This document shows, piece after piece, positions 1-27,107 of a stretch of 32,000 nucleotides of DNA. The stretch is from Halorhodospira halophila SL1. Its GTDB lineage: Bacteria; Pseudomonadota; Gammaproteobacteria; Nitrococcales; Halorhodospiraceae. The notes under the pieces were generated by a model. That model saw only the letters and a list, made by a program, of their open reading frames with translations. It ran no database searches and had not been told where the DNA came from. Where the stretch lies: contig NC_008789.1 in the NCBI RefSeq assembly GCF_000015585.1, positions 1,680,001-1,712,000 of the forward strand. The letters are read 5' to 3'. Each line of letters starts with the position of its first letter. Position 1 is the stretch's first letter. The translations under genes were made by a program, and so were the position numbers.

Positions 1-7
1 CCCCCAA

Positions 8-1384: not shown

Positions 1385-1463
1385 ACCCACCTCGTGCATT
1401 CCGGCTGGATGTGATGCGCTTGCCTCACCGCCCGGGATTGCCGACTGAACCCCGGCGGATGGT

Positions 1464-8137: not shown

Positions 8138-8139
8138 CT

Positions 8140-9447: not shown

Positions 9448-9451
9448 CACC

Positions 9452-9883
9452 GTGCGCGACTTCTTCTCGCAGCAGTTCCTGCTCTTCCTGCTGACCGGGG
9501 GGATCGCGGCCGTCGTCAATTTCGGCAGCCGGATCGTCTACAGCCTGTTCATGGGGTATTCGGCGGCGATCGTTACCGCCTACATCACCGGCATGATCAC
9601 CGCCTACGTGCTGGCGCGCCTTTTCGTCTTCCGCTCCCCCCAGGTGCGTACGGTGCGCTCGGCGGTCTGGTTCACACTGGTCAACGTCGCCGCCGTCGCC
9701 CAGACCTGGGCCGTCAGTGTCGCCCTCGCCTACTACCTCCTACCGGCGGCCGGCGTGGAAGCATTCCGCGAGGAGATCGCCCACGCCGTCGGCATCGCGG
9801 TACCGGTCTTCTCCAGTTTCCTCGGGCACAAGTACCTCTCCTTCGCAACGCCAGCTGCACGGGACTCGAAGCAACCTCGCTGA
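9452..9883 (+). CDS. GtrA-family small membrane protein (polyprenyl-phosphate-sugar handling)
   Basis: The GTG at 9452 is 4 nt after the upstream stop. The 143-aa product has four hydrophobic helices, the N-terminal signature FLLFLLTGGIAAVVNFGSRIV, and a C-terminal ..FLGHKYLSF typical of GtrA. Confidence 0.75.
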   Translation: MRDFFSQQFLLFLLTGGIAAVVNFGSRIVYSLFMGYSAAIVTAYITGMITAYVLARLFVFRSPQVRTVRSAVWFTLVNVAAVAQTWAVSVALAYYLLPAAGVEAFREEIAHAVGIAVPVFSSFLGHKYLSFATPAARDSKQPR

Positions 9884-9908
9884 TCGCCCCACCGCGACCA
9901 TGCGGCGC

Positions 9909-12575: not shown

Positions 12576-12617
12576 GCCACCTCACCAGGCGCTTACCTTA
12601 GGCGTAATAGCGCTACC

Positions 12618-12659
12618 GAATGCCCGATCCCGAATGGTTCCTCCTGCAACCGGGCATTC
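12618..12659. promoter_or_regulatory. 9-bp perfect inverted repeat (gaatgcccg ... cgggcattc, 24-nt spacer) in the divergent intergenic region 12576-12730
   Basis: Read directly: gaatgcccg at 12618-12626 and cgggcattc at 12651-12659. There is also a 7-bp direct repeat ccgaatg at 12616-12622 and 12630-12636. It lies between divergently transcribed genes, so it is a candidate operator or RNA hairpin. Confidence 0.3.
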
Positions 12660-12730
12660 CTTAATCCCTCTGCTATTCTGCCTTAGAGCGTAGCACAAAC
12701 GCGGGATTCGCCCCTCTGAGCGCGGCAAGG

Positions 12731-13711
12731 ATGGCACCGTACATGGTCATGGCTCGATTACCGGCCCGCGCGGCGTGGTTTGCCTTTCAGGCTCAGCCCC
12801 GACTATCGATTCTCATATACCACCGCGTCCGTCCCGCACCGGATCCGATGCGCCCCGATGATCCGGATGTTCAGCGGTTTGAGGAGCAGATTGCCTGGCT
12901 GCGTCACGCCTGCCACGTTTGGCCTTTGAAGGAGGCCATCCGCCACTTGTACGCCGGCACCCTGCCCCGCGGGTCCGTGGCCATAACTTTTGACGACGGC
13001 TACGCGGACAACCATGACTACGCCTTACCTGTGTTGCTCCGGCAGGGCGTCCCCGCAACCTTCTTCATCGCGACCGGATTTCTTAACGGCGGGCGGATGT
13101 TCAACGATACGCTCATGGAGGCGTTCGCGAACACGGAACAGCTGGCTGTCGAACTGCCCGAGTTGGGACTGCCGCACCTTCCCCTTGACGGGGTCGAGGC
13201 ACGCTGCCAAGCGAGCCGGCAGGTCACCAAGGGCATCAAGCACCTCCCCCCGCCGGAGCGAGCAGCCTCGGTGGAGCTGATCCTAGACCGCCTGGGGCGT
13301 CCCGATTGCGGCCAATCCCCCATGATGACGGATGCACAGGTCAAGGCGCTGTACGAACAGGGCATGGAGATTGGCGCCCACACCGTTACCCACCCCATCC
13401 TACGAACCCTGGATGAGGCCTCGGCACGCGATGAGCTCGCGCAGAGTCGAGACTACCTGCAGACACTGCTCGGTGCACCCGTTGGCCTGTTCGCCTACCC
13501 CAACGGCAAGCCGGGGCAGGACTACGGCCCCCGCGAACCGGGCCTCCTGCAGGAACTCGGCTTCAAAGCGGCGGTGTGCACTGCTCCCGGCGGGGCCAAC
13601 CGGGGTCGCGATCCCTATCAACTACCTCGTTACACCCCTCACGGCCGCACGCCCATGCGCTTCATGACCCAACTGATACGTTGCAGTCGCGAGGAGGCTG
13701 AGGCGGCCTGA
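12731..13711 (+). CDS. Polysaccharide deacetylase (NodB homology domain; PEP-CTERM-locus type)
   Basis: NodB motifs ITFDDGYADN and GAHTVTHP are present, along with LFAYPNG. 326-aa ORF. Confidence 0.85.
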   Translation: MAPYMVMARLPARAAWFAFQAQPRLSILIYHRVRPAPDPMRPDDPDVQRFEEQIAWLRHACHVWPLKEAIRHLYAGTLPRGSVAITFDDGYADNHDYALPVLLRQGVPATFFIATGFLNGGRMFNDTLMEAFANTEQLAVELPELGLPHLPLDGVEARCQASRQVTKGIKHLPPPERAASVELILDRLGRPDCGQSPMMTDAQVKALYEQGMEIGAHTVTHPILRTLDEASARDELAQSRDYLQTLLGAPVGLFAYPNGKPGQDYGPREPGLLQELGFKAAVCTAPGGANRGRDPYQLPRYTPHGRTPMRFMTQLIRCSREEAEAA

Positions 13712-13725
13712 CGCCGAATCCGCTT

Positions 13726-15144
13726 ATGGACCTTCGTGACATCGTCTTCGGCACCATCCTGATCTCCAGCCTGCCGCTGATCTTATACAGGCCCTGGATC
13801 GGGCCGCTGATGTGGTACTGGGTGGGCTTTTTTAATCCGCACCAGCAGGCGTGGGGGTTCTTTGCCGGTGCTCAGGTCGCACTCCCCGTCGCTATCGCGA
13901 CCCTCGCAGCCACCGCCTATACCCAGGAGAAGCGCTGGCCACCGATGACTCGGGAGATGTGGCTGGTCTTCCTTCAGGTCATCCTGTTCACGGTGATTAC
14001 GTTCGGCTTCGCCTGGCTCCCGGATGACGCGTTCGGGCTCTGGGATCAGCGGATGCGCATCATCTTGATGACCGTCATCACGGTAATACTGATCTACGGG
14101 AAGCAGCGCGTCATGGCGCTGCTGGCCATGATCACCCTGTCCATCGCCTACTTCGGCTTCAAGGGCGGCCCCTATACGCTCAGCACCGGATTCGGGGGGA
14201 TGGTACTCGGGCCACAGGGAACGTTCATCGGCGGCAATACCGATATCGGCCTGGCTCTGGTGATGATCCTGCCTCTCACCTTAATCCTCGCCCGCCAGGT
14301 CTATCACGGGCGTTTCGAACTCCCGATCCGCATCCCCGGCTTCGAAACCTGGCACCGGCTGATTGGGCTCGCCCTCTACGGCGGCTTCTGGATGACCCTG
14401 ATCTCGATCATTGGGACCCAGTCCCGCGGTGCCTGGGTAGCCCTGGCATGCACCTGGCCGTTCATCTTCTGGCGCCTGCGCTTCAAGTGGGCCCTGGTCG
14501 CCGCCGTCGTCCTCGCGGTTGGGGTCATCGGAGTCACGGTCCCGGACCGCGTGGCCCACGAGTGGCAGACCCTTGTCGAATACGAGGACGACGGGTCCGC
14601 ACAGGGCCGATTCCACGCGTGGGATGTGGCTTGGAACATTGGGGTGGAGCACCCGCTGACCGGTGCCGGCTTTGGTGCCCAACGCATCGACGCCGAGCTA
14701 TGGCGCTCCTACAGTAGCGATGGTGATGGCAGCCCGCTCGCACAGCACAGCATCTACTTCCAGACGCTGGCCGAGAACGGATTCCTGGGGCTCGGGCTGT
14801 TCCTGGCACTACTTGGCTTTACGCTGCTCACCCTGAACCGTCTGCGTCGCGACGCCGCTCAGCACCCGGATACGCTCTGGATCAGCGAGTGGTCGTGGGC
14901 CCTCGCCATCGGCCTGATCGGTTACTGCGTCGCGGGGGCCTTCTTGAGCCTCGCGTACTTCGACCTGATGTACGCCTTTATCGCCCTAGCCATCATCCTG
15001 CGCCGAGAATTTGAGGATGTCCGGGTCGCGGTACGGTACCCCAGCCCGACCACCGCCACAGCACCACAACAAACGCCGGTGGGCGAAGTCGGCTATCGTC
15101 CGGGTACTCCGCCGCGTGCCCTCTATCGACGCCCCCCTGCATAA
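13726..15144 (+). CDS. O-antigen ligase-like membrane protein (putative O-glycosylation ligase, exosortase A system-associated type)
   Basis: 472 aa and polytopic. The N-terminus LILYRPWIGPLMWYWVGFFNPHQQAWGF and the SRGAWVALA, RFHAWDVAW...HPLTGAGFG and HSIYFQTLAENGFLGL motifs follow the Wzy_C/O-antigen ligase pattern. Confidence 0.8.
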   Translation: MDLRDIVFGTILISSLPLILYRPWIGPLMWYWVGFFNPHQQAWGFFAGAQVALPVAIATLAATAYTQEKRWPPMTREMWLVFLQVILFTVITFGFAWLPDDAFGLWDQRMRIILMTVITVILIYGKQRVMALLAMITLSIAYFGFKGGPYTLSTGFGGMVLGPQGTFIGGNTDIGLALVMILPLTLILARQVYHGRFELPIRIPGFETWHRLIGLALYGGFWMTLISIIGTQSRGAWVALACTWPFIFWRLRFKWALVAAVVLAVGVIGVTVPDRVAHEWQTLVEYEDDGSAQGRFHAWDVAWNIGVEHPLTGAGFGAQRIDAELWRSYSSDGDGSPLAQHSIYFQTLAENGFLGLGLFLALLGFTLLTLNRLRRDAAQHPDTLWISEWSWALAIGLIGYCVAGAFLSLAYFDLMYAFIALAIILRREFEDVRVAVRYPSPTTATAPQQTPVGEVGYRPGTPPRALYRRPPA

Positions 15145-15155
15145 CGGGAGTTTGC

Positions 15156-16601
15156 ATGTACTGCCTGATCGATCAGCACGGTGCGATGTCCGGACACCCC
15201 TCCCATCAATTGGCCTTTGATAAGGCCGATGACGAGCCCACACTGTTGGCCTGGTGGGCTTTTGATGGCGAGTGTCTGCAGATCCAGGCTGACCGCCTCG
15301 GCGTCATCCCACTCTTCCATGGCGTGTTACCGACGGGAGGCTACGTCGTCTCGGACTCACTGCTCGAGGCTTGCTCTCTCGCCGGGCAACCGCTGGATCT
15401 TGACCATGCGGCGATCGCCGTTTTCCTCCGGTTGGGCTACTACCTGGGGGAGGATACCCCCTTCAGGGCGCTCCGGGTTCTAGCCCCCGGAGAGCGCATC
15501 CATTTCACACCGCGAAGGCTCACACGGCATGTTCCAGATTTACCCATCATGGCGCCGCGAGCGTTACCTCGAGACGCGGCAATCAGGGAGTACGATTCCC
15601 TTTTTTCGGAGGCCATTCGTGCACGATCCGTCGGCACTCAGCTAAAGACCCTCCCATTATCCGGGGGGCGCGACTCCAGGCACATCCTACTGGAACTGGA
15701 TCGCTTGGGCCGCCGACCTGAAAGGGCCGTGATCAGTGCTAGAAGCGGAACGGACGACACAGATCGCGCTGTCACTTTGGCGAAATACTTGGACCTTGAC
15801 ATCGACCTGGTCACCCAACCAGAAGACTTCTTCGCCCTCGAAAAGGAGAAAAACCGACGCAACCATTTCCTGACCGATGAGAACGCCTGGTACCTGCCTA
15901 TTGCGCAACACCTCCAGGGAACCGTACTAGACGGGTTGGGCGGCGATGTCCTGTCCAACGGTTATGGTTTCAAGCGTCGACTGGCCTCCCTGATGGCAGA
16001 CAACCGACTAAGCGAAGCCGCGTCGTTCTTGCTTCCATCCACAGCGAGCACCAAAGTCCTGAAACCCTTCTACCGCGACCAGTGGTCTCGGACAGTCGCA
16101 ATGAATAGGTTGCATGCAGAGCTCGCAAGGCATGCAAAGGCGCCCAACCCAGTCGCTTCCTTCCTATTCTGGAATCGCACTCGTCGTGAGGTGGCGCTTA
16201 TCCCCTTGACCCTAATCGCACCGCGGGCAGACGTCGCCTTGCCGTATCTCGACGCCTCCCTGCTGGACTTTTTCCTTTCCCTCCCGGCTGAGGACTTTGG
16301 AGAACCAGGTTTCCATGATGAGGTACTAGCTACCACCTATCCAAAAGCCTCCCAGCTCCCCTATGCCACGAAAAAAAAAGCCACGGGACAACGCTGGGCT
16401 CGCATCAAGCGCTCTCGCGCTTATCACCAGCAACTTCGCGCTGCGTTTGATCTTTACCGCCATGGGCATTTAGTCGGCCACGGGTGTCTGCCATATTTGC
16501 TCGAATCCTTCATTACGGGACACGACCGTCCTATCTCATGGCCGTTTCGTCCACTGCACCCCCTAGAACAACTGTTAGAGCATACCGCTGTACGAATGTA
16601 A
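15156..16601 (+). CDS. Asparagine-synthetase-B-like PP-loop adenylating enzyme with a truncated, Cys-less N-terminal domain
   Basis: The PP-loop LSGGRDS is present. DRLGVIPLFH and LRLGYYLGEDTPFRALRVLAPGE resemble the AsnB inter-domain region. The protein begins MYCLIDQ rather than MCG, and only about 100 aa precede the synthetase domain. It starts 12 nt after the upstream stop. Confidence 0.75.
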   Translation: MYCLIDQHGAMSGHPSHQLAFDKADDEPTLLAWWAFDGECLQIQADRLGVIPLFHGVLPTGGYVVSDSLLEACSLAGQPLDLDHAAIAVFLRLGYYLGEDTPFRALRVLAPGERIHFTPRRLTRHVPDLPIMAPRALPRDAAIREYDSLFSEAIRARSVGTQLKTLPLSGGRDSRHILLELDRLGRRPERAVISARSGTDDTDRAVTLAKYLDLDIDLVTQPEDFFALEKEKNRRNHFLTDENAWYLPIAQHLQGTVLDGLGGDVLSNGYGFKRRLASLMADNRLSEAASFLLPSTASTKVLKPFYRDQWSRTVAMNRLHAELARHAKAPNPVASFLFWNRTRREVALIPLTLIAPRADVALPYLDASLLDFFLSLPAEDFGEPGFHDEVLATTYPKASQLPYATKKKATGQRWARIKRSRAYHQQLRAAFDLYRHGHLVGHGCLPYLLESFITGHDRPISWPFRPLHPLEQLLEHTAVRM

Positions 16602-16805
16602 TGCCGACTACCTTAGGCCCTCGCAATCACCGTCTCACCCCGGTGACGGAATGCGGCGTCGCGCCCGGTCTATTAGCATGGCTGACGATGCACGCCAACG
16701 TGGCCAAGCACAGAACCAGTGCTTATCGAACGCAGAACCATCACCATAGCCACCACTCTAGTTTTATACCCCATCCTCCCGACTGATTGAATGCTCATCG
16801 ATTGG

Positions 16806-18008
16806 TCAGACCGAGGCATAACTTTCTCCCAGGGCTTCCGCAGCCACTACGTTCTCTGCAAAATCCCGTACCCGACCGATGATCTCGGGCTCAACCCAGG
16901 CCGCGCGGTGGCACCCCCAATCCCAGTTTCCTTCGATAAGGTAAGGCCCTTGTGGTGAAATAGCGATATCCCAACCGATCGTTCGAACACCTGGAAACAC
17001 GTCGCGGTGCGCGGCCTCCGCCACCTGCAGCACGCTGGTCCAGAAGGGGATCTTAACCCCCCCGAGCACTGCACCGCTATCCGGGTGTCTTTCACATGCG
17101 GTCACCTCAAAACCGTGAATCCAGAACCCAGTATCCCGCGTGGCTCCCCCGACTAGGTCAACGCCTATTATTACCCGCCCATCCCGGGCATTGTCTGTTA
17201 TCGCCCCCCGCGCCCCGATCCTTAGAACGGCAACAAGCGGGACCACATTACGGCTGCCATCGATTCCGGTGACGATGCGCAGCGTATTCAGGGAGTTTTT
17301 ATGGATTCGCTCGAGGACGGGGTGATTATAAATTTTCCTCTGCACAACAAATGGGCTATCGTAAGAGGCCATTTCTAACTCATTCGGGATGTCAAAAGAA
17401 GGCTGGCCATAATCAGAGCGCACACCGATGCAGAATATTTGCTTCCCTTGCTGACCGAACTGCGGCTTGGCAATAATTTCTTCACCCGAGAGCACATCGG
17501 GATCATTTTTGAAAAATGGTTCTTTGGCATGCTGACCATCCGGTACAAACGCCCCACGATGGAGCGTTCCTATAACCGGCGCGGTGGGCACCCCCTGCTC
17601 AGCCACCTTAAAGTAGAAGTCGAGTTTGTCAGTTAGGCTTTGGGCGTGCTCTTGGCCATTTCTGGAAGAGGTGTCCGCATAGCAGGTCCCCTGCCCGTAC
17701 GAATCACGGACACTGTGGAAATAGGCGGGCCGGAGGATACGTATACGTCGCCGTCGCAAATCACAGTTAAACGCTAGGTAAGCGTCCGGTGTATTCTTAA
17801 AAATGACGGTCGCGTACAAGAGCTCGAAAAACCGACGGGGCAACGGCTTCCGCTCCTGATAACAATGGCCGCGGGGGTTGCTCCTAGCCAGACGAATTAG
17901 TGGCCGGATATTTCTGCAAATAAATGCACCCCTCCAGTAGTAGGGCTGCGCCTTTGACCATAACCGTCCGAGCCAATGGCTTTTGGATATTTTATTTTTG
18001 TTAATCAT
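16806..18008 (-). CDS. ATP-grasp protein of the sugar-transfer-associated type (ATPgrasp_ST-like)
   Basis: 400-aa ORF in the lowest-GC part of the window; the ATG at 18008 has GGGAG upstream. The segment SLNTLRIVTGIDGSRNVVPLVAVLRIGARGAITDNARDGRVIIGVDLVGG...HPDSG resembles the conserved core of that family. The call rests on recollection of the family pattern only. Confidence 0.55.
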   Translation of the reverse strand: MINKNKISKSHWLGRLWSKAQPYYWRGAFICRNIRPLIRLARSNPRGHCYQERKPLPRRFFELLYATVIFKNTPDAYLAFNCDLRRRRIRILRPAYFHSVRDSYGQGTCYADTSSRNGQEHAQSLTDKLDFYFKVAEQGVPTAPVIGTLHRGAFVPDGQHAKEPFFKNDPDVLSGEEIIAKPQFGQQGKQIFCIGVRSDYGQPSFDIPNELEMASYDSPFVVQRKIYNHPVLERIHKNSLNTLRIVTGIDGSRNVVPLVAVLRIGARGAITDNARDGRVIIGVDLVGGATRDTGFWIHGFEVTACERHPDSGAVLGGVKIPFWTSVLQVAEAAHRDVFPGVRTIGWDIAISPQGPYLIEGNWDWGCHRAAWVEPEIIGRVRDFAENVVAAEALGESYASV

Positions 18009-18173
18009 TTACAGACTCCCATAACCTGCCGGTCTCAATCACAACATAACGTAATTCGGGCTTTCCAAAACAAAGGCCACTCATACTCAGCATATTCTCA
18101 GGCAGCAATAGCTTGGTCGTCGCCGGTGTGGAAGCGCGCGCTGATATGGCATCAGCCACGATCTACCTCTGTT

Positions 18174-19049
18174 TCAGTTTTTATAGCACTCCCGCAGGCC
18201 GAGCTGCGAGCAGACAGTTTCGAGATCATAATTATAAGACAAATCCTTACTTAAATCACGGCGGTCATCCTGGGGCGATTGTGGCACGTAGTCTTTTCGT
18301 CCGATTCGTGTACAATGCCCCTCCCTGACCCTCTTCAGATCAATAGGATGAACCTTACCCCCATGGATCTCATGCCACGCTAGAATACCGCCCCCGTGAT
18401 CGTAGTCATATTGACGCCGCAACCGAGCACGCAGAGAATCCGGGCAATTCGGATGCCTCCAGACGTTCCTCCACCAACCGGCACCGACTTCGAATTGTGA
18501 GCGGCTTGCCCCAGCCGTCGTGCAGCCGATGAGTTCCCAGAACCGATCACGTTTTCCGTACCACCTTTTGTACCATGGCCGACGACTGTCTAGTGCACTT
18601 ATGTGCCCGTCCGGTAAAGCCTCAAACCACTCGGCCAAATCCTGCAGGACCGATTGTCGCACCAACAAGTCTGAATGCCAGAACGCCAGCCGCCCGCAGA
18701 ACAGATGGGAAAATTCCACGGGAAACAGGAAGTGCATGATGGGATAGTTGAATCCGGCGTTGAAATCCACCCTCACCGCACCCTCCTCTAGCGGTGGCTC
18801 GCCGGAGCGCGGGTCACCCCCTACGACCGGGGTCCAATCGACGGACTTAACCAGTCGCTGCTGGACTCGACACCAGTCGGGATCGACATTCCAACACAGC
18901 CAAGGTTTCGCAACCCCCCGCAGCTGTTCCCGCCACTGCTGGGAGCACGCCTCGATCTCGGCGACCCGGCTTGCCGGAAACACATCCCAGTTCCCCTTTG
19001 CTTCGCGGAGCCACTGCCGCTGCTGGTCGGTGTAATCGCCTTCAGTCAC
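18174..19049 (-). CDS. Hypothetical protein, Trp/Arg-rich, no recognisable family
   Basis: 291-aa ORF with a GTG start at 19049. I saw no TM segments and no signal peptide. Composition is unusual (many W: WLREAKGNW, WLCWNVDPDW, WYKRWYG, GWWRNVW). It is co-directional with the flanking ABC exporter and ATP-grasp genes. Confidence 0.5.
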   Translation of the reverse strand: MTEGDYTDQQRQWLREAKGNWDVFPASRVAEIEACSQQWREQLRGVAKPWLCWNVDPDWCRVQQRLVKSVDWTPVVGGDPRSGEPPLEEGAVRVDFNAGFNYPIMHFLFPVEFSHLFCGRLAFWHSDLLVRQSVLQDLAEWFEALPDGHISALDSRRPWYKRWYGKRDRFWELIGCTTAGASRSQFEVGAGWWRNVWRHPNCPDSLRARLRRQYDYDHGGGILAWHEIHGGKVHPIDLKRVREGHCTRIGRKDYVPQSPQDDRRDLSKDLSYNYDLETVCSQLGLRECYKN

Positions 19050-19186
19050 GGTAGAACACCCCTACTACCCCGGTCATTCACCTTGGGCGCATACGCTCAA
19101 CCTCGGGCCAGCCGAGCCAGACGATGGCTGCCATTGCGTTCATCCACCTTCGCAAGAGCAGCCTTCTTGGAGCAGAGAGACATACG

Positions 19187-21016
19187 CTAGGCCATCCCTG
19201 CTGCGAGCTGCGTTAAGCGCCCATCCTGTGCGATCAAATCGTCCCAGGAGCCTTCTTCCACCAAACGCCCCTGCTCCAGGACGAAGAGCCGGTCGCAGTT
19301 CTTGACCGTTGTCAGACGGTGGGCGATCAGGATGATCGTTTTCTGGCCAGCCAGGTTGTGCACGGCACTCATGACGGACTTCTCGGTTGCGGTATCCAGC
19401 GCGCTGGTCGCCTCATCAAAGATGAGTACCGCCGGATCCCGGTACAGGGCTCGTGCGATACCGATTCGCTGCCTCTGCCCACCGGACAACCGGACCCCTC
19501 GCTCTCCGATCGGCGTATCGTAACCACTGGGTAACTGCGTTCTAACAAAGCCATCCAGATTCGCCAGCCGGGCGGCTCGTTCCACAGCAAGCTCATCGAT
19601 CTCCGAGGCTTTAAGCCCCAGGGCGATATTTCCGCGGACCGTGTCGTCCGCCAGAAAGATATGCTGTGGCACATACCCGATGCCGGCTTGCCAATCGCGC
19701 AGAGTCTGTTGACGCAGCGTGACCCCATCGACGCGCATCTCGCCGGAGTCAGGCGCCAGCAGTCCCAGCAGCAGATCGACCACGGTGCTCTTCCCTGCCC
19801 CCGAGGGCCCCACGATCCCCACTGTGGTATTGGCCGGGATCGCCAATGACAGTTGCTGCACAGCGTGCATCTCGGCGCCCGGGTACCGGAACGATACCTG
19901 GTCTAGCTCAATGGCCTGGCGCGGCACCATGGGCTCGGGCTGTCGTCGCTGGTGAACTAGGGGCACCACTTCCGAGCGATCATTGAGATCCTTCAAGAGC
20001 GTCTCCACCGCGGGCATGTTGAACCGTAGCTGAGCGAACGCTCCAAAGAGGCTCTGGAATGCCGGAATCAGACGCTTTACAGCCAAGGCGTAGAGACCAA
20101 TGATCGGCAGCGCCTGCGCAACCCCTCCCCCATCGGCCATCAGGTAAAGAACAAGGAGCAGTACACCACCGAAGGCGATCGCCTCGATGGCGTACTGGGG
20201 TAAGTTCTCAAGGATCTGCGAATTGGCCTGGTGCCGCGCGAACTGATGGGCCGCCCCTTTGTACCGCTCCAGGTAAGGACGCTCTCGGCCAAGCAGGCGG
20301 ATCTCCTTCGCCCCCGCGAAGGCCTCCCCGACCGCAGCAAAGCGCTTCTCGTTGGCGGAGACTCGCTCGGCACCGATCCGAGCCAACCATACCCGGGCAA
20401 CCAGGTAGATCACGCCGTAGGTCAAACCCAGCACGCTGGCAGCAAGCAGCGTCAACCAGGGCTCTACGAGAAGGAGCAAGCCCAAAATGGCCAAAGCCAG
20501 GATCCCGTTGCTGAGCAGCTTTAAAAGGGGCATCAGCCCGCCCCGGATAGCGTGATTGGTCTCCTCCAAGATCGACTTGGACAGATCCGCGGAGTTGCGG
20601 TTGAGGTAGAACGTGTAGGGGCGCCGGAGATAGTCGGCCATCAAGCGGCAGGAAACACTGTATCGGCGCATGTGCGTAAAGCGGGTTTCGGTCCATTTCG
20701 TCGCCGCTTGAACCGCATTGCCGATGACGATCAGGGCGAAGGCGGCCCCACCAAGAAAGAAGAGGAACGAACGGGCCGTCTCGAAGGGCAGCACCTCATA
20801 CGCCGCGCTTAGCCAGCGGTGTTCGTGAACGACCGATGGATCGCCCAGGACGGAGAGGAACGGCATAACCGAGGCGATACCCACCGTCTGGACGAAAGCG
20901 TTGACGACCATCAGCACGACGAGTCCAGCCGTCATATACTTCTCGCGTCGGGTCAGCAGGCTGAGTGTCTTGCGGGGAACCTCAACAAAGGAGCGCAGGA
21001 TCATTGCAGGAGACAT
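19187..21016 (-). CDS. Fused TMD-NBD ABC exporter (MsbA/PglK-like type I exporter)
   Basis: 609 aa. The N-terminal half has six helices. Motifs present: Walker A GPSGAGKST, signature LSGGQRQR, Walker B VLIFDEATSALD, H-loop IAHRL. Confidence 0.9.
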   Translation of the reverse strand: MSPAMILRSFVEVPRKTLSLLTRREKYMTAGLVVLMVVNAFVQTVGIASVMPFLSVLGDPSVVHEHRWLSAAYEVLPFETARSFLFFLGGAAFALIVIGNAVQAATKWTETRFTHMRRYSVSCRLMADYLRRPYTFYLNRNSADLSKSILEETNHAIRGGLMPLLKLLSNGILALAILGLLLLVEPWLTLLAASVLGLTYGVIYLVARVWLARIGAERVSANEKRFAAVGEAFAGAKEIRLLGRERPYLERYKGAAHQFARHQANSQILENLPQYAIEAIAFGGVLLLVLYLMADGGGVAQALPIIGLYALAVKRLIPAFQSLFGAFAQLRFNMPAVETLLKDLNDRSEVVPLVHQRRQPEPMVPRQAIELDQVSFRYPGAEMHAVQQLSLAIPANTTVGIVGPSGAGKSTVVDLLLGLLAPDSGEMRVDGVTLRQQTLRDWQAGIGYVPQHIFLADDTVRGNIALGLKASEIDELAVERAARLANLDGFVRTQLPSGYDTPIGERGVRLSGGQRQRIGIARALYRDPAVLIFDEATSALDTATEKSVMSAVHNLAGQKTIILIAHRLTTVKNCDRLFVLEQGRLVEEGSWDDLIAQDGRLTQLAAGMA

Positions 21017-21377
21017 CCTCGGTGTCGGCGATTTTTGCGGCTAACTCCGACGACGGCTATCACCGGACGAAACAACCCCATGTCTGTATTGGGCCTTAGA
21101 CCCCTGTACACCACCACTGACAGTGTAGACCGTGTGCCGAGCCCGTCATCCGTCTAGTCAGCGAAGGCACCCATTGCCGCCCCTAGCCACCTGGCTGAGC
21201 ACGCGGTCATAGTCAACCCAACCTAGAGGGCTCCGGGCCCTCAGCTGCGGCTACGCAACCACGCCACCCTTCCGCCATCGAATGCTTTCTGCTATAGGAC
21301 TTGAGGGGAAGGCCGATCATTGCTGCCGGCACCTCCGCCGATACGGGGCTTGGTCTTTCAAATGAAGCCACCTGGCA

Positions 21378-21389
21378 CTTGGTACCAAG
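21378..21389. promoter_or_regulatory. Perfect 12-bp palindrome cttggtaccaag 22 nt upstream of the sulfotransferase start, nested in a longer inverted repeat
   Basis: Read directly. The flanking 8-bp arms ttggtctt (21350-21357) and aagaccaa (21387-21394) are also reverse complements. It lies in the 394-bp divergent region between the ABC exporter and the sulfotransferase. Confidence 0.35.
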
Positions 21390-21410
21390 ACCAACGGGTA
21401 GATAGCCACT

Positions 21411-22379
21411 ATGGATCAAAAGCCGCCTCTCGTGCTCATCGTGGGCACTGGACGCTCCGGGACCACCTTTTTAGGCAAGCTTCTCGATAGCCATCCTCGA
21501 GTCCGGTACCGACATGAACCGGATTGGGCCTATGTCGACCCTTCACTTCCGTTCCTACCACGTCCAACAGAACAAGACGCTTACCGGCATCAGGCAGCGC
21601 AATACTTCCGCCGCCTTGCGGAGGTTCGAGCGGTGAAGGTCACCGGCAAGACACCGCTTTTCCGAAAGTCTTATCGTTCGGGCCCGAGAGAGGCCGCCCA
21701 CCGTCTGAACCTCGCCATAGGCCACGTCCTCGACTCCTTGGGGATCGCTAAGAAACGCGACCTCGTGTGGGACATGGTGCAAAAGGACGCCACCGATGAC
21801 CTGGTAACCGTCATCAAGAGCGTAAACTCCCTTGCTCGAGCGCCCCTATTCGCTCATGCGCTTCCCAACACACCGATTGTGCATATTATCCGGCACCCCG
21901 CCGGCGTCGTCGCCTCCCGACTCCGGGGGGCTAACCGAGGCTTGATGGGCTCTAAAACCTACATTGACAGCCTATTCGACGCGGGGTATGCGGAGGCATC
22001 AGGGCTGAAACGTGAACAAGTACAAGAATGGCCTCTAGAGAAGCAATTTGCCTTCGAATGGATGACGCTCAATGAAACCGTCTACCGGTCACTTCGGAAC
22101 CACGAACAATACATCTGCGTGACCCACGAAGCTCTTTCTCGCTCAACTGAAAAGACCACTCAGTCAATACTTGCCCACATCGGGATCGACTGGAACGAGC
22201 AGACGGCGCATTTCATTCGCTCCCTGCGCGCGAAAACCGCTTCCTCCGGCTTTTTCGACGTCCAGAGAGCCCCAGAACCTCAGATCGAGAGATGGCGTAA
22301 CGAAATGACTAACACGCAATTGAAATGGATCGAGGAGGTGATTGAACCTTCACGGGTCGGACAATGGTTTTTAAATTAA
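21411..22379 (+). CDS. Sulfotransferase family protein (PAPS-dependent)
   Basis: The N-terminal 5'-PSB-type P-loop LVLIVGTGRSGTTFLGKLL is present, followed by IIRHPAGVVASRL (3'-PB-like). 322 aa, with lower GC than the locus average. Confidence 0.8.
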   Translation: MDQKPPLVLIVGTGRSGTTFLGKLLDSHPRVRYRHEPDWAYVDPSLPFLPRPTEQDAYRHQAAQYFRRLAEVRAVKVTGKTPLFRKSYRSGPREAAHRLNLAIGHVLDSLGIAKKRDLVWDMVQKDATDDLVTVIKSVNSLARAPLFAHALPNTPIVHIIRHPAGVVASRLRGANRGLMGSKTYIDSLFDAGYAEASGLKREQVQEWPLEKQFAFEWMTLNETVYRSLRNHEQYICVTHEALSRSTEKTTQSILAHIGIDWNEQTAHFIRSLRAKTASSGFFDVQRAPEPQIERWRNEMTNTQLKWIEEVIEPSRVGQWFLN

Positions 22380-23115
22380 ATTCCTCGAGGGCTGTTTTTG
22401 AAAAAAAAAACACGCACAGACGTAAATCTTGTCTTTAAAAGCATATCGGCACTATCCCTTGACCTTTTTTAAACGCTTCTCTTCCGCACCCACGCCTCAC
22501 CCAAGCGCGGGCAACTTGCCACTGGGAAAAAACCCGCGACCACGGACTGCCCAGCTGTACGCCCGAGGTCTTCGCATAGCTTCGAAAAACACTTGAACAT
22601 GAATGCTGGCAGCGACAGGGCTGCGAAACCTCGTTTACAATAAAGACCATTTTCCGGGCCGCCCACCGCCGCCATCCCAAACGGTATTGATCTATTCGCA
22701 CTTGATGCCCAAACTGTAACAACTCAAATAGGCTGCGACGGCACGGACTCCATCATAGCGCCGGAGGGGTTTCTTTTAAATAGGCCGGATCAGAGCCTTT
22801 ATAGTTTTTTCAGGACCAAATAGCAAGGTTCTCCACCATCGGGAATAGCGATGATAGACAGCGACCGCCACAAACGAAGCGTTGGAGAACCCCACCTTCC
22901 AGGATCCGGGTGCACCGGGGCTGCCCTTCGCCCGCCCGGAGCACCACCGCACTCGACCGGCACGTTCCATCGATTAGTTGCCCGCACGCGCCCGCCCCGA
23001 GCAGGCGATGGAGAAATGGTGCAACTAGGCAGAGCGTTGAGCTTGCGCCCCCCCCGGTCAGCAACTACGCTCAAATTGTGAGTGGGATCCCTATACATGT
23101 GAGGCCGATCAATCG

Positions 23116-24705
23116 ATGCTACGCCTTTTCCCAGACCTTGTTTTCGCTTCCGCCAGGACGCGCCCCGAAAACATCGCGCTAACTCAAGCTGATCAGCGCT
23201 GGAGCTATCAACAGGTTGCGGAGGAAGTCGCATCATTAGCTACCGCCCTTCGCGGTTTCGGCCTTGAAGCCAACGAACGGGTCGCAATCTATTTGGAGAA
23301 GCGCCCAGAGGCCGTTATGGCACTTTTCGGTGCTAGCGCAGCTGGCGGCGTCGCGATTCCAGTCAACCCAGCGCTGAGACCGCACCAGGTCGCACACATC
23401 CTCGACGATTCCGGGGCAACTGTGCTGATCACCTCCGGTCCTCGCTTACAACAACTTTGGGATGCTCTAGACGGAGCACAGCCCTTCAAGGCCATCGTGG
23501 TAGGCGACTCGGATGCTGGAGAGCACCGGCCAAATCAACCCATCCCGTGGGGCGCGTGGCCTCGGGTGACATCCCCCCCCACCCCGCGGCGAATCGACTC
23601 CGATATGGCGGCAATCCTGTATACCTCAGGCAGCACCGGCCTACCCAAGGGGGTGGTGCTCTCCCACCGCAACCTCGTTACCGGCGCCATCAGCGTCAGC
23701 GAGTACCTCCAGAACGCCGCCTCAGACCGGATCCTCAGTGTCCTACCACTGAGTTTCGACTATGGCCTGAGCCAGATTACGACAGGCTTTGCCACAGGCG
23801 CCGAGGTTATCCTCCTCAACTACCTGCTACCCCAGGATGTCCCCCGCGCTGTGTCGCGTTACGAGGTTACCGGGCTGGCGGCCGTGCCTCCGCTGTGGAT
23901 TGAATTGGCCAATCTTGATTGGCCCGACGCTGCCCGCAGTACCCTGCGTTATATCACCAATTCGGGTGGCGCGATGCCACCTTCAACGCTTCAAAAACTC
24001 CGCGACCAATTACCCGGAACGGCACCCTATCTGATGTACGGGCTCACAGAAGGGTTCCGTTCCACTTACCTACCCCCAGAGGAGATCGATCGGCGACCCG
24101 GGTCGATCGGCAAGGCTATCCCCAACGCCGAGGTGCAGGTCGTGCGAGAAGATGGTTCGCCCTGCGCCCCCAATGAGCCCGGCGAGCTCGTTCATCGGGG
24201 TCCTTTGGTTAGTCTGGGATACTGGCAGGCCCCCGACACGACCGCTAAACGCTTCCGCCCAGCACCCGGACAACCTGCTGGACTCCCACTGCCGGAGATC
24301 GCGGTCTGGTCGGGAGATACGGTTTACGCTGACGAAGATGGCTACCTCTATTTCGTAGGCCGGAACGATGAGATGATCAAGAGTTCCGGCTACCGAATCA
24401 GCCCCCAAGAGATCGAGAACGTCCTCGACGGAACGCCTGGACTCACGGAGGCAGTCGCCATCGGTGTTCCGCATCACCGCTTAGGAGAGGCAATACTAGT
24501 CCTCGCTACCGTAGAGGAGGGGCCAGCCGGTGCATGTGAGGACGATTTGCGGGCGAGGTGCCGCCAACAACTCCCCCCCTTCATGGTGCCATCAGCCTTC
24601 CTCCTTTGGACGCAACCACTGCCACGCAATCCCAACGGTAAGGTCGATCGAGCAGGCCTTCGCCATCGTCACGCGGAGTTCTTTGCCGAGACGGAGGAAC
24701 CATGA
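23116..24705 (+). CDS. AMP-forming acyl-CoA/acyl-ACP ligase (exosortase A system-associated type)
   Basis: Adenylate-forming core motifs ILYTSGSTGLPKGVV, YGLTE and GDTVYADEDGYLYFVGRNDEMIKSSGYRISPQEIE are present, plus the terminal PRNPNGKVDR lysine motif. Confidence 0.9.
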   Translation: MLRLFPDLVFASARTRPENIALTQADQRWSYQQVAEEVASLATALRGFGLEANERVAIYLEKRPEAVMALFGASAAGGVAIPVNPALRPHQVAHILDDSGATVLITSGPRLQQLWDALDGAQPFKAIVVGDSDAGEHRPNQPIPWGAWPRVTSPPTPRRIDSDMAAILYTSGSTGLPKGVVLSHRNLVTGAISVSEYLQNAASDRILSVLPLSFDYGLSQITTGFATGAEVILLNYLLPQDVPRAVSRYEVTGLAAVPPLWIELANLDWPDAARSTLRYITNSGGAMPPSTLQKLRDQLPGTAPYLMYGLTEGFRSTYLPPEEIDRRPGSIGKAIPNAEVQVVREDGSPCAPNEPGELVHRGPLVSLGYWQAPDTTAKRFRPAPGQPAGLPLPEIAVWSGDTVYADEDGYLYFVGRNDEMIKSSGYRISPQEIENVLDGTPGLTEAVAIGVPHHRLGEAILVLATVEEGPAGACEDDLRARCRQQLPPFMVPSAFLLWTQPLPRNPNGKVDRAGLRHRHAEFFAETEEP

Positions 24706-25937
24706 ACCCGCACGTCGCTCACTTGCCCTGTATGGAGGTCTTCTCCATACAGGACGGTGAATTAACGCTACAAGGCGTCCCGGTCACACAGTTGGCCGAG
24801 AGCGCCGGACAGACGCCGTTCTTTGCTTATGATCGAGCCATGATCGACCACCGCGTGGCGGCATTGCGCGCTACGCTCCCGCCCGAGATCCATCTTCACT
24901 ACGCGATCAAGGCCAATCCTATGCCGGAACTCGTCCAGCACCTCGCCCGAATGGTCGACGGCTTGGACGTGGCGTCCGCTGGGGAGCTGGCGCTGGCACT
25001 TGAAACCGAGACCGCCCCGGCCGATATCTCCATTGCGGGGCCGGGGAAACAGGATCACGAGCTTGCTCGGGCATTGGAATCCGGCGTCACCATCAACTTG
25101 GAGTCTCCCGGCGAGCTGGAGCGCCTGGCCGAGCTGGCCAACCGGCACGGGCGCACCCCCTCTGTGGCGATCCGGATCAATCCCGATTTCACGCTCAAGA
25201 CGTCTGGTATGCAGATGGGCGGCGGCCCCAAGCAGTTCGGGATTGATACCGAGCAGGCCCCGGCAGTTCTGCATCGAATCGGCGAACTCTCTTTCGATTT
25301 TCGAGGTTTCCAGATCTTCGCAGGTTCCCAGAACCTGAACACGGACGCCCTCATCACTGCTCAGAACGGCATCTTCGAACTCTTCAACCGCCTTGCCGAC
25401 GAGGCTCCCGCTCCGGTCACTCTGCTCAACATGGGGGGAGGGCTTGGCATTCCCTACTTCGCCAACGATAGACCCCTGGACTTAGACCGCTACGGGGAAC
25501 ACCTGCACCGCCATGTCGCGGCTTGTCGCCAGAGGTTCCCGAATGTCCAGATCGTGCTTGAGCTCGGCCGCTACCTGGTGGGTGAGGCCGGAGTTTATGT
25601 CGTTCGCGTTATCGATCGTAAGGTTTCGCGCGGGCAGGTCTTCCTGGTCACCGATGGCGGCATGCACCACCACCTTGCAGCCTCGGGGAATCTTGGCCAA
25701 ACCATACGCCGCGACTACCCCATCGCCCTTGCCACGGCGATGGACCACCCCGCCGCGGAGGACGTGTCTGTTGTCGGTCCGTTGTGCACGCCGCTAGATG
25801 TTCTGGGTAGTCGCGTCCCTCTCCCCTACGCGAAGCCCGGGGATCTGATCGTGGTGTTCCAGTCCGGCGCTTACGGTCTGAGTGCGAGCCCAACCTATTT
25901 TCTTAACCACCCTAAGGCAGCGGAATTACTTGTTTGA
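24702..25937 (+). CDS. PLP-dependent decarboxylase, fold type III (Orn/DAP/Arg decarboxylase family; exosortase A system-associated type)
   Basis: The ATG overlaps the ligase stop (ATGA at 24702-24705) and GGAGG lies upstream. The PLP-lysine motif HLHYAIKANP is present. So are GGGLGIPY and the C-terminal PLCTPLDVLG...GDLIVVFQSGAYG typical of this family. Confidence 0.9.
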   Translation: MNPHVAHLPCMEVFSIQDGELTLQGVPVTQLAESAGQTPFFAYDRAMIDHRVAALRATLPPEIHLHYAIKANPMPELVQHLARMVDGLDVASAGELALALETETAPADISIAGPGKQDHELARALESGVTINLESPGELERLAELANRHGRTPSVAIRINPDFTLKTSGMQMGGGPKQFGIDTEQAPAVLHRIGELSFDFRGFQIFAGSQNLNTDALITAQNGIFELFNRLADEAPAPVTLLNMGGGLGIPYFANDRPLDLDRYGEHLHRHVAACRQRFPNVQIVLELGRYLVGEAGVYVVRVIDRKVSRGQVFLVTDGGMHHHLAASGNLGQTIRRDYPIALATAMDHPAAEDVSVVGPLCTPLDVLGSRVPLPYAKPGDLIVVFQSGAYGLSASPTYFLNHPKAAELLV

Positions 25938-26103
25938 CCCCGGACCAAGTCACTGCATTGCTGCGTGAGACCTGCTCCCGCCGGACTTTCCTGTCAGCCC
26001 AGAGCGCTTCATCCAGGGCGCTTGCCCAGCCCTTAGCCAATCGTAATAAAATAAAAGTTTAGAAACAGAATCCAAGAATCAAAAACACGAAGGCAGCTCG
26101 AAA

Positions 26104-27105: not shown

Positions 27106-27107
27106 GC

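Follow-up and report, generated by a model that had tools for sequence, protein, structure and literature searches.

O-antigen and capsule loci are mosaics in which lower-GC glycosyltransferase and modification genes, which are exchangeable, lie among conserved core genes, and a similar arrangement is probable for the exopolysaccharide locus of Halorhodospira halophila SL1 analyzed here. The window, a stretch of 32,000 nucleotides, contains a locus of the exosortase-A (XrtA)/PEP-CTERM type. In the profile search of the window, the XrtA-associated markers TIGR03097, TIGR03098, TIGR03099 and TIGR03100 scored above their curated cutoffs, and TIGR03101 matched a gene truncated at the end of the window. 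The exosortase gene itself was not found within the 45 kb examined around the locus. The initial annotation interpreted positions 15156-23115 as a horizontally acquired decoration and export cassette. The functional part of this interpretation was supported, but a single 8-kb import was not, given the right edge, the conservation of the ABC transporter gene and the differing histories of the genes. The block is probably the leftmost and deepest part of a lower-GC variable domain of ca. 18 kb (ca. 15.5-33.6 kb), assembled gene by gene and not in one import.

Gene content

Both anchors of the block lie outside it. The left one is a putative O-glycosylation ligase, exosortase A system-associated (13726-15144, plus strand; TIGR03097, 360 bits against a cutoff of 188). 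This O-antigen-ligase-like gene, below the ligase-like gene, is the last gene of a conserved deacetylase-ligase unit. The right anchor consists of the XrtA-associated acyl-CoA ligase and PLP-dependent decarboxylase genes (23116-25937, plus strand; TIGR03098, 710 bits against 592, and TIGR03099, 591 against 478), the orthologues of which are 58-59% identical in Thioalkalivibrio contig L016. Profile searches and reading of the open reading frames between the anchors recovered the gene content noted earlier, i.e. a Cys-less AsnB-like enzyme, an ATPgrasp_ST ligase, a Trp-rich protein, an ABC exporter, a sulfotransferase and a non-coding tail, and the family assignments supported their roles in polysaccharide decoration and export. 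The block likely comprises three transcription units distributed on both strands.

The AsnB-like gene (15156-16601, plus strand) starts 11 nt 3' of the ligase-like gene, with which it is probably co-transcribed. The product resembles an adenylating amidoligase without the glutaminase nucleophile (PF00733, 34 bits), and its scores were far below the cutoffs of TIGR03108 (41 bits against 817) and TIGR01536 (21.6 against 267). At E<1e-30 the family numbered 538 representatives, with identities of 35-47% for the best. An N-terminal Cys was present in none of the 13 sampled homologues nor in the query, these proteins starting with MA, MS, MP or V, and in the same set the PP-loop LSGGRDSRH was invariant.

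The minus-strand unit ends with the gene for a sugar-transfer-associated ATP-grasp ligase (ATPgrasp_ST; 16806-18008, minus strand; PF14397, 131.5 bits against a cutoff of 31.4). The start of its 400-aa reading frame is uncertain because NCBI annotates a 345-aa product. Among 5.8 billion proteins, the best non-self match was 33% identical over 63% of the query.

The Trp-rich protein (18174-19049, minus strand; ca. 290 aa), encoded 3' of the ABC gene, belongs to an uncharacterised family with no Pfam or NCBIfam model. It had been regarded as an orphan, which is not correct, as 413 homologues were detected at E≤1e-3. The scan across species genomes yielded 150 confirmed relatives, and the family is present in the polysaccharide loci of at least 150 species. 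An alignment of 25 sequences contained 45 invariant columns, including the motifs PWLCW, WTP..G.DPR, AFWHSDL, GCTT..AS and EGHC. The fold of the AlphaFold2 model (pLDDT 94.2, pTM 0.91) resembled FKRP, heparosan and chondroitin synthases and glycogenin only weakly, and none of these matches was significant (E 0.008-0.07, TM about 0.3). The protein may be a putative nucleotide-sugar-dependent transferase.

The ABC gene (19187-21016, minus strand) encodes an ABCB-type half-transporter with a membrane domain (PF00664) and an ATPase domain (PF00005). Walker A (GPSGAGKST), signature (LSGGQRQR) and Walker B (LIFDEATSALD) motifs were all present in the translation. The best NCBIfam matches were PglK (311 bits), MsbA (298) and HepA (298), all below the equivalog cutoffs, and no Wzx gene (PF01943) was listed in the 45 kb around the ABC gene. 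Sub-threshold similarity and context together make the protein a candidate flippase or exporter of lipid-linked or nascent polysaccharide.

The PAPS-type sulfotransferase gene (21411-22379, plus strand) probably forms its own transcription unit. It was identified by PF13469 (74.5 bits against a cutoff of 27) and PF00685 (38 bits), and its translation includes the N-terminal GTGRSGTT of the 5'-phosphosulfate-binding loop as well as IIRHPAGVVAS. The 394-nt divergent intergenic region between this gene and the ABC gene (21017-21410; GC 0.596) probably carries the promoters of both, as suggested by the gene layout; the consensus scan gave no sigma-70-type match there.

The 736-nt non-coding stretch 5' of the acyl-CoA ligase operon (22380-23115) has two parts, an AT-rich one at 22380-22830 (GC 0.50) and a GC-rich one at 22831-23115 (GC 0.625), and is presumably a promoter and leader region. 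The only sigma-70-like matches in the scan of this stretch were located at 22612-22641 (plus strand) and 22780-22752 (minus strand). It contained no Rfam family even at E≤1, no reading frame with a significant Pfam match and no sigma-54 consensus site, and neither the fetched loci nor other parts of the window contained a sequence homologous to it.

Base composition

The eight 60-nt GC counts made by hand in the initial annotation were reproduced exactly (41.7, 45.0, 51.7, 51.7, 53.3 and 61.7% in the block, 66.7% in the left flank and 63.3% in the right), the 63% line being unrepresentative of the right flank. The GC content was 0.649 over positions 1-15155 and 0.573 over the block, with a sharp step down just 3' of the ligase-like gene. 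The block thus lies 10 points under the genome average of 67% (PMC3746430). At the same edge the GC3 of the genes dropped from 0.75-0.82 to 0.58-0.64, and the best single GC change point, representing one dominant step, was placed at ca. 15.5 kb.

Of the two edges proposed, 15156 was supported by this step and by the synteny break described below, but 23115 was not, as the composition does not shift back at 23.1 kb. The GC content of the right flank (23116-32000) was 0.601, and the mean GC3 of the genes did not differ significantly between the block (0.64) and the right flank (0.66; Mann-Whitney, p=0.34), while the genes of the left flank differed from both (p about 0.001). When one block between equal flanks was modelled, the best fit was 15.5-30.8 kb, not 15.1-23.1 kb, and in the extended contig GC was back at 0.66-0.67 only at ca. 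33.6 kb, beyond the window end. The right-anchor genes are XrtA core markers, yet they lie inside the same lower-GC domain as the block (GC 0.607 and GC3 0.640 for the acyl-CoA ligase, 0.612 and 0.721 for the decarboxylase). Low GC alone is here no mark of foreign DNA, because the domain also holds the hallmark XrtA-associated core genes TIGR03098, 03099, 03100 and 03101.

The composition had been described as mosaic, which segmentation bore out and sharpened: GC was 0.549 at 15.5-18.8 kb, 0.607 at 18.8-22.0 kb, 0.504 at 22.0-22.9 kb and 0.602 thereafter. Tetranucleotide correlation with the native pool was 0.72 for the ABC gene, 0.47 for the AsnB-like, 0.42 for the Trp-rich, 0.30 for the sulfotransferase and 0.19 for the ATP-grasp gene, with native genes (those of similar length in the ATP-grasp comparison) ranging from 0.41 to 0.65. 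The ATP-grasp gene, which also has the lowest GC (0.543) and GC3 (0.584) of the window, is a true outlier, its composition being the most foreign in the block. The ABC gene (GC3 0.743) had the most native-like tetranucleotide signature of all genes tested. The GC3 of the sulfotransferase gene was 0.616. The origin of the AsnB-like gene is less clear than that of the others, its GC3 being low (0.633) and its tetranucleotide correlation yet within the native range.

These segments would also fit a smaller recent insertion, in which only ca. 15.2-18.8 kb (the AsnB-like, ATP-grasp and Trp-rich genes) and the AT-rich patch at 22.0-22.9 kb are foreign and the rest is native. The best multi-segment model isolates 15.5-18.8 kb and 22.0-22.9 kb, and the tetranucleotide usage of 15156-18800 is set apart, correlating with every other segment at only 0.35-0.52 when the others correlate with each other at 0.60-0.77. 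Gene by gene, however, the ATP-grasp gene alone stands clearly apart, with the AsnB-like and Trp-rich genes inside the native range, and the AsnB-like gene follows a core gene after 11 nt and is still at flank-like GC (0.62) over its first 345 nt. In addition, joint arrival of the Trp-rich and ATP-grasp genes is unlikely because the pairing of the former with the ABC gene extends to distant relatives. The smaller insertion is on the whole unlikely, and assembly of the domain gene by gene is preferred.

Comparison with related loci

Contigs of H. halophila with exact matches were all 100% identical, and the comparison was thus made across relatives and not between differing strains of the species. 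Orthologues of the ligase-like gene were 82% identical in L004, 76% in L005, 61% in L006, 55% in L008/L010 and 60% in L012, and with every one of these relatives synteny ended at the 3' end of this gene, after which other genes followed. With L004, the contig of the closest relative, homology could be followed up to 15017 in the nucleotide sequence and up to where the ligase-like gene ends in the protein sequence; this contig ends 680 nt past the gene. The genes that follow are a GT2 glycosyltransferase in L004, ATPgrasp_Ter and QueC-like genes in L005, a GT2, a p500-like gene, an ABC gene and a sulfotransferase in H. neutriphila, several glycosyltransferases in L008 and L010, and a GT2, further genes and then Wzx in L012. 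The gene set of the block was found in none of the relatives examined, and as judged from this gene content the region is lineage-specific.

For the ABC protein, identity was 65% with H. neutriphila, 59-60% with the other Halorhodospira contigs L008/L010 and 57-62% with the XrtA loci of Thioalkalivibrio, a conservation equal to or greater than that of adjacent core genes. In the soda-lake contigs L013/L014 it was 79-83% identical, with other neighbours. The gene looks native and belongs to what is conserved of the locus in this lineage, not to foreign DNA. The ABC gene followed by the Trp-rich gene is an order kept in the Thioalkalivibrio XrtA loci and in L013, and in L014 two genes lie between them; in L093 the Trp-rich family gene is preceded by a Wzx flippase gene instead of the ABC gene. 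Judged from these orthologues, the ABC gene is an old component common to Ectothiorhodospiraceae, its pairing with the Trp-rich gene probably also being old. The sulfotransferase was 45% identical to the one adjoining the ABC gene in H. neutriphila and 31% identical to that of L093.

That one cassette covering 15156-23115 was inserted between the ligase-like and acyl-CoA ligase genes in a single horizontal event is decidedly unlikely. The steps in GC and GC3 and the synteny break at the left edge, the low GC of the block relative to the genome and the AsnB-like and ATP-grasp genes, for which the examined loci of other Halorhodospira offer no equivalent, are what such an event would leave, but composition does not return on the right, the ABC gene is native and conserved, the closest relatives of each gene occur in different contexts, and two strands are used by the likely three units. 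As already noted in the initial annotation, no integrase or transposase was present, here among the gene calls, and neither a tRNA nor flanking direct repeats were found at the block, all of which also speaks against a single cassette. There was no Rfam match, and the plasmid search gave no match beyond the generic ABC ATPase domain.

The GC dip recurred in the variable parts of the loci of relatives, down to 0.43-0.54 in L008/L010 and 0.56-0.60 in L016-L019. Together with the conserved XrtA core genes of lower GC3 inside the domain and the native-like tetranucleotide signatures at 23-33.6 kb, this is compatible with purely vertical inheritance, the low GC of 15.5-33.6 kb then resulting from mutational bias, expression level or selection favouring surface-polysaccharide genes that are AT-rich, weakly expressed or silenced. 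Absence of any transfer is nevertheless highly improbable: gene content 3' of the ligase-like gene differed in every relative, the ATP-grasp gene has an aberrant signature and no relative above 33% identity, and the Trp-rich protein has a 79% identical counterpart in a contig where the genes around it match the window at only ca. 30% or undetectably. One older, large acquisition could also account for the reduced GC across all 18 kb. Within the gene-by-gene assembly that we favour, the ATP-grasp and sulfotransferase genes, which have the most atypical composition, are the likeliest later acquisitions.

Proposed function of the region

Judging from family membership, the glycosyltransferases of the locus would build a repeat unit on a lipid carrier, and the Trp-rich protein, possibly a divergent nucleotide-sugar-dependent transferase, may be one of them. 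From the domain composition and the intact motifs, three modifications are suggested: the PAPS-type sulfotransferase would transfer sulfate onto the unit, the AsnB-like enzyme would adenylate a carboxylate for amidation by ammonia or an amine, these being its predicted substrates because the glutaminase nucleophile is missing, and the ATP-grasp enzyme would join a carboxylate to an amino acid or amine. The PglK/MsbA-like half-transporter would then flip or export the unit, a role consistent with the lack of Wzx in the surrounding 45 kb and with the presence of a Wzx gene at the equivalent position in relatives without the ABC gene. The block probably represents the ordinary variable decoration and export region of an exopolysaccharide cluster, assembled piecemeal.

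The exopolysaccharide locus

Four genes marking the XrtA system scored above the curated NCBIfam cutoffs. These were the XrtA-associated O-glycosylation-ligase-like gene, below called the ligase-like gene (13726–15144; TIGR03097, 360 bits against a cutoff of 188), the acyl-CoA ligase gene (23116–24705; TIGR03098, 710 against 592), the PLP-dependent decarboxylase gene (24702–25937; TIGR03099, 591 against 478) and the gene of hydrolase 1 (30618–31532; TIGR03100, 340 against 168). The gene of hydrolase 2 is cut by the window end and gave 140 bits with TIGR03101. Judged by these profile matches, the window sits in an exosortase-A (XrtA)/PEP-CTERM-type exopolysaccharide locus. The polysaccharide-synthesis gene setting matches the description of such loci in Haft et al. 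(2006, PMC1569441; TIGR03097–TIGR03101), but, unlike in the known XrtA/PEP-CTERM loci, the exosortase gene and the PEP-CTERM substrate genes are missing from the 45 kb seen here. No exosortase gene (EpsH/XrtA, PF09721) was present among the called genes between −3.4 kb and 41.5 kb in window coordinates, and no PEP-CTERM substrate gene was found in the 45 kb, of which the ORF search covered the window. The exosortase gene may be located elsewhere in the genome.

Over 21.4 kb the window was 100% identical to contigs of Halorhodospira halophila (GCA_016583685.1) and to two sequencing-run assemblies, and no same-species variant of the locus was found among the matching contigs.

Some genes in the left part of the window also deserve mention. 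A protein of 1131 aa (1464–4859, minus strand) combines VanZ-like and Wzy_C (O-antigen-ligase/polymerase-like) regions; it has relatives of 45–71% identity, some of them shorter, and is matched by no NCBIfam model. The ORF at 8–1510 (500 aa) is absent from the record at that length, and its start differs from the annotation because the annotated product has 463 aa. The mechanically called ORF 7180–8022 has a GC3 of only 0.54 together with a GC1 of 0.83 and is therefore in the wrong frame; the annotated gene within 7180–8137 encodes a 237-aa epimerase-like protein at about 7424–8137.

Composition and edges of the lower-GC domain

The initial annotation had read positions 15156–23115 (the block) as one acquired cassette of 8 kb, lower in GC than both its flanks. 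All eight of its 60-nt hand counts were exact on recount, and its gene inventory was as stated: an AsnB-like gene (15156–16601, plus strand), an ATP-grasp gene (16806–18008, minus), a gene of a Trp-rich protein (18174–19049, minus), an ABC exporter gene (19187–21016, minus) and a sulfotransferase gene (21411–22379, plus), followed by a non-coding stretch. Also the left edge was recovered. GC falls from 0.649 (1–15155) to 0.573 (15156–23115) and gene GC3 from 0.75–0.82 to 0.58–0.64, the ABC gene with 0.74 being the GC3 exception in the block, and an unconstrained change-point search in 100-nt bins placed the dominant GC step at about 15.5 kb.

The right edge at 23.1 kb did not hold, as no compositional boundary is present there and the GC of 23116–32000 averages 0.601. 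Mean gene GC3 was 0.78 to the left of the block, 0.64 within it and 0.66 to the right, with p-values of 0.0009 for left against block, 0.0001 for left against right and 0.34 for block against right. A single block between equal flanks fitted best at 15.5–30.8 kb. In the extension of the sequence on the same contig, a GC of 0.66–0.67 was not reached again before about 33.6 kb in window coordinates. As GC stays lowered past 23.1 kb up to this point, the block is the leftmost and deepest part of a lower-GC domain of about 18 kb, which also includes XrtA-associated core genes. GC is 57–60% here against 67% for the whole genome of H. halophila SL1 (PMC3746430). In the extension (L094), the domain takes in, at about 32–33.6 kb, the gene of hydrolase 2, a small gene of 84 aa and a portion of a GT1 gene; genes of a sigma-54-dependent activator and of a PAS-GGDEF protein come after the recovery.

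The mosaic character of the block was borne out by the best segmentation, which gave GC values of 0.549 (15.5–18.8 kb), 0.607 (18.8–22.0 kb) and 0.504 (22.0–22.9 kb), and 0.602 thereafter. For each feature, the composition-normalised tetranucleotide usage was correlated with that of pooled native genes, the composition baselines being drawn from the 45 kb. Native genes correlated with the pool at r = 0.41–0.65, save one short gene of 741 nt at 0.22. The ABC gene had the highest value of all (0.72), and the AsnB-like (0.47) and Trp-rich (0.42) genes were followed by the non-coding stretch (0.33), the sulfotransferase gene (0.30) and, as a clear outlier, the ATP-grasp gene (0.19). In codon usage the genes right of the block were as atypical as the block genes, with the ABC and decarboxylase genes as native-looking exceptions.

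Comparison with the loci of relatives

Loci of relatives were fetched around orthologues of the ligase-like gene, and the ligase identities below are to the protein of the window. In the closest relative contig, L004 (ligase 82%, left flank 75–81% at the nucleotide level), nucleotide homology with the window ends at 15017, and the place of the AsnB-like gene after the ligase-like gene is taken by a GT2 gene 48% identical to the GT2 gene of the window at 26104; the contig ends 680 nt past the ligase-like gene. In a sequencing-run assembly (L005, ligase 76%) the ligase-like gene is followed by ATPgrasp_Ter/LMWPc and QueC-like genes. In H. neutriphila (L006, 61%) there follow a GT2 gene, a homologue of the first ORF of the window, an ABC gene (65%), a sulfotransferase gene (45%) and further glycosyltransferase genes. 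In two other Halorhodospira loci (L008 and L010, 55%) several glycosyltransferase genes follow and an ABC gene (59–60%) lies upstream in divergent orientation, and in Thioalkalivibrio ALJ7 (L012, 60%) a GT2 gene follows, with a Wzx flippase gene further downstream and no ABC gene.

The gene content after the ligase-like gene thus differs in each relative and is lineage-specific, as had been proposed. As far as the compared sequences indicate, the junction between conserved and variable DNA lies directly after the ligase-like gene in every lineage, which supports the left boundary of the block. The more distant congeners retain the ABC gene, and H. neutriphila retains a sulfotransferase gene too. 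The conservation of the ABC exporter equals that of the core genes, which contradicts its arrival within a foreign cassette. The dip in GC is present also in the variable parts of the relatives' loci, with 0.43–0.54 in L008 and L010 and 0.56–0.60 in the Thioalkalivibrio loci L016–L019, against 0.63–0.70 nearby.

In L004, L006 and L012 the GT2 gene directly after the ligase-like gene is 46–49% identical to the GT2 gene of the window at 26104–27105. In the window these two genes are separated by 11 kb (15145–26103), consisting of the block and the acyl-CoA ligase and decarboxylase genes, so the rearrangement may exceed the reported block. Of the congeneric loci, L010 belongs to an assembly that bears the name H. 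halophila (GCA_016653405.1), and the protein P0013 (L008, GCA_022227925.1) is labelled as common to several Halorhodospira species. The ligase-like orthologues of both have only 53–55% identity with that of the window, and the locus layouts are quite different. Either the name H. halophila spans very divergent genomes or the locus is hypervariable. A scan of species genomes with the ligase-like protein as lone query confirmed no relatives, which is a limit of the pattern method.

The ABC exporter and gene organisation

The ABC exporter belongs to the lineage's own locus and is native by signature. Its protein is a half-transporter with a membrane domain and an ATPase, in which the Walker A, Walker B and signature motifs are intact. 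It aligned over its full length to PglK, MsbA and HepA (E 1e-92 to 1e-88), with scores below the equivalog cutoffs of all three (311 bits against 1000, 298 against 602 and 298 against 725, respectively). The likeness to PglK (the Campylobacter lipid-linked-oligosaccharide flippase), MsbA and HepA is thus one of general ABC exporter architecture only, and the protein is a member of none of the three. Unlike them, it forms a conserved group of its own in the XrtA loci of Ectothiorhodospiraceae, where its gene is usually followed by a gene of the Trp-rich family. Among the genes listed for the 45 kb there is no Wzx gene, which leaves the ABC protein as the only candidate flippase or exporter there and hence with a core rather than an accessory function.

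The AsnB-like gene begins on the plus strand 11 nt past the ligase-like gene. On the minus strand the ABC, Trp-rich and ATP-grasp genes follow one another at distances of 137 and 165 nt, and the sulfotransferase gene diverges from the ABC gene over 394 nt. By this layout, the block likely contains three transcription units; scans for consensus promoters and terminators were uninformative for them.

The AsnB-like, ATP-grasp and sulfotransferase genes

The AsnB-like protein belongs to a family whose members have approximately 470–530 aa; 538 representatives were matched at E < 1e-30, the best of them 35–47% identical. It had been described as Cys-less, and the N-terminal Cys nucleophile was indeed present in no member of the sampled alignment. 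Of the glutaminase half only a truncated and degenerate form is left, and the alignment to TIGR03108, the usual amidotransferase of the XrtA system, begins at profile position 128. That amidotransferase is absent from the block: the AsnB-like protein reached only 41 bits against a cutoff of 817, and with the glutamine-hydrolysing asparagine synthase model TIGR01536 21.6 against 267. The Asn_synthase domain and the invariant SGGxDS PP-loop, which reads LSGGRDSRH throughout the sampled alignment, are shared with AsnB and related adenylating enzymes, and there is weak similarity to lasso-peptide and macrolactam cyclase models. In contrast to glutamine-dependent AsnB, the protein lacks the Cys nucleophile and belongs to a separate family. 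The predicted reaction would be ATP-dependent adenylation of a carboxylate, followed by attack of ammonia or an amine.

The ATP-grasp protein exceeded the threshold of ATPgrasp_ST (PF14397) with 131.5 bits against 31.4. It is nevertheless a very isolated member: its best non-self match among 5.8 billion proteins was 33% identical over 63% of the length. None was closer, and a donor lineage cannot be named. The ORF has 400 aa and the NCBI annotation 345 aa, so the first 55 codons may be untranslated. PDB sequence searches with the AsnB-like and ATP-grasp proteins gave no usable match.

The product of 21411–22379 scored above the thresholds of two sulfotransferase models (PF13469, 74.5 bits against 27; PF00685, 38.2 against 22), and both PAPS-binding loops, GTGRSGTT and RHPxxxxxS, were read from the translation. 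It is predicted to be a PAPS-dependent sulfotransferase.

The non-coding stretch

The 736-nt stretch between the sulfotransferase and acyl-CoA ligase genes (22380–23115) is bipartite, with a GC of 0.50 up to 22830 and 0.625 thereafter. No Rfam family matched it even at E ≤ 1, and a Pfam search of its eight internal ORFs gave one non-significant DUF match (E = 0.013, below cutoff). Sigma-54 consensus sites were not found in the stretch, matches across the window being at or below chance, and tblastx and blastn against all the fetched loci and the window gave nothing credible. The acyl-CoA-ligase operon probably has its promoter and leader in this stretch. In Thioalkalivibrio the region upstream of the acyl-CoA ligase gene is only about 250–350 nt.

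The Trp-rich protein family

The Trp-rich protein (about 290 aa) had been called an orphan; this was corrected, as a search at E ≤ 1e-3 gave 413 homologues. When a single genome for each species was scanned with the family alignment as query, 150 relatives were confirmed, and the family is thus present in no fewer than 150 species genomes. They belong to Gamma-, Alpha- and Betaproteobacteria, to many Acidobacteriota, to Planctomycetota and Gemmatimonadota, and to further groups. Also two Alteromonas mediterranea plasmids of about 600 kb (NZ_CP018025.1 and NZ_CP018028.1) carry a homologue, 41% identical over 93% of the query and annotated as hypothetical. No Pfam or NCBIfam model matches the protein, and a PDB sequence search with the family profile gave no usable match.

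The alignment of 25 family members has 45 invariant columns, a pattern that looks enzymatic; H125, D127, E112 and C246 are among the invariant residues. The AlphaFold2 model is confident (pLDDT 94.2, pTM 0.91), and its Foldseek matches were weak and non-significant (E 0.008–0.07, TM about 0.3). They showed a weak fold likeness to FKRP (6kak), heparosan synthase (8vh7), chondroitin synthase and glycogenin, at a level that does not establish membership. The family has an invariant His-Ser-Asp after a beta strand, where nucleotide-sugar and CDP-alcohol transferase folds have DxD. That the protein may be a divergent transferase is a lead from the model, not a finding.

The immediate neighbours at 65–71 loci were varied polysaccharide-synthesis genes: glycosyltransferases of families 1/4 and 2, Wzx flippases, ABC exporters and Asn-synthase-like genes, and furthermore O-antigen-ligase-like genes, deacetylases and exosortases. 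An obligate partner gene was not found among them. The order of an ABC gene followed by a Trp-rich gene recurs within Ectothiorhodospiraceae. In the Thioalkalivibrio XrtA loci L016, L018 and L019 the ABC proteins are 57–62% and the Trp-rich proteins 50–53% identical to those of the window, and two of the three have an AsnB-like gene (31–34%) 1.2–1.3 kb further on. The two genes are adjacent in the soda-lake contig L013 (ABC 79%, Trp-rich 65%) and separated by two genes in L014 (83% and 54%). These two soda-lake sediment contigs (PUMZ01000339.1 and PUMZ01000313.1, respectively) are binned as "Candidatus Brocadiaceae" and look like mis-binned Ectothiorhodospiraceae DNA.

A fixed module of AsnB-like, ATP-grasp and Trp-rich genes was considered and rejected. 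Locus L093 has all three families nearby, with only the Trp-rich protein close to that of the window (79%). Its gene there overlaps the end of a Wzx flippase gene, and its neighbours are distant from those of the window (sulfotransferase 31%, ATP-grasp 30%; the Asn-synthase-like gene was undetected by tblastn). A homologue of the ATP-grasp gene of the window was present in none of the 80 loci from the species-genome scan. Read from these neighbourhoods, the pattern is that of gene-level shuffling and not of transfer of a fixed module.

Tentatively, and with more doubt than confidence, the Trp-rich protein may be taken to found a new family of transferases building or modifying polysaccharides. 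Its partner in Ectothiorhodospiraceae would be the flippase of the gene directly upstream, ABC in some loci and Wzx in another, and it would act on the lipid-linked repeat unit at about the time of flipping.

Mobility and origin of the block

A tRNA scan found no tRNA, Rfam at the gathering threshold gave no match, and a search for flanking repeats at 14.5–24 kb found only chance-level short repeats. The remark that no integrase or transposase is visible stands, none being present among the called genes. At the DNA level only a generic ABC ATPase domain was matched in the plasmid collection. The mobility hallmarks of an island, i.e. an integrase or transposase, a tRNA target and flanking direct repeats, were thus not found. 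Neither is the composition that of an island, which would be uniformly atypical with the native level on both sides: GC remains low beyond 23.1 kb, and the ABC gene looks native. The reading of the block as a single acquired cassette is not supported, because its right edge is absent, its ABC gene is native-like and its genes are shuffled individually. The decoration and export functions assigned to its genes hold.

The block is probably an ordinary variable region of a polysaccharide locus, built piecemeal around the lineage-conserved ABC exporter, although some room is left for other readings. It has the features of such a region: conserved anchors, glycosyltransferase and modification genes that differ in each relative, and a GC below that of the genome. 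Of its genes, that of the ATP-grasp protein is the most plausible later acquisition, probably together with that of the sulfotransferase.

In O-antigen (rfb) and capsule (cps) clusters, conserved anchors flank exchangeable glycosyltransferase, modification and flippase genes, and the content differs between close relatives. These clusters have a GC below the genome average and no dedicated mobility genes, and Wzx and ABC exporters are interchangeable in them. The present region resembles their variable centres in its anchors, low GC, differing content, absence of mobility genes and exchange of Wzx and ABC. It differs from them in being an XrtA/PEP-CTERM exopolysaccharide locus of a haloalkaliphilic phototroph instead of a lipopolysaccharide or capsule locus, and in its core marker genes, which are reshuffled from one relative to another and in part have the lower GC themselves.

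Sharp-edged low GC in polysaccharide loci is not by itself a sign that one cassette was imported; the present lower-GC domain has over twice the reported length and contains hallmark core genes and a native exporter. The most useful by-product is the Trp-rich family, which is widely distributed, well conserved and unannotated and has a confident structure model. It occurs in the polysaccharide loci of numerous phyla and would be a sensible candidate for biochemical work. For the extreme halophile H. halophila SL1 the region predicts a sulfated and amidated or amino-acid-substituted exopolysaccharide, the export of which would follow an ABC-type and not a Wzx-type route.
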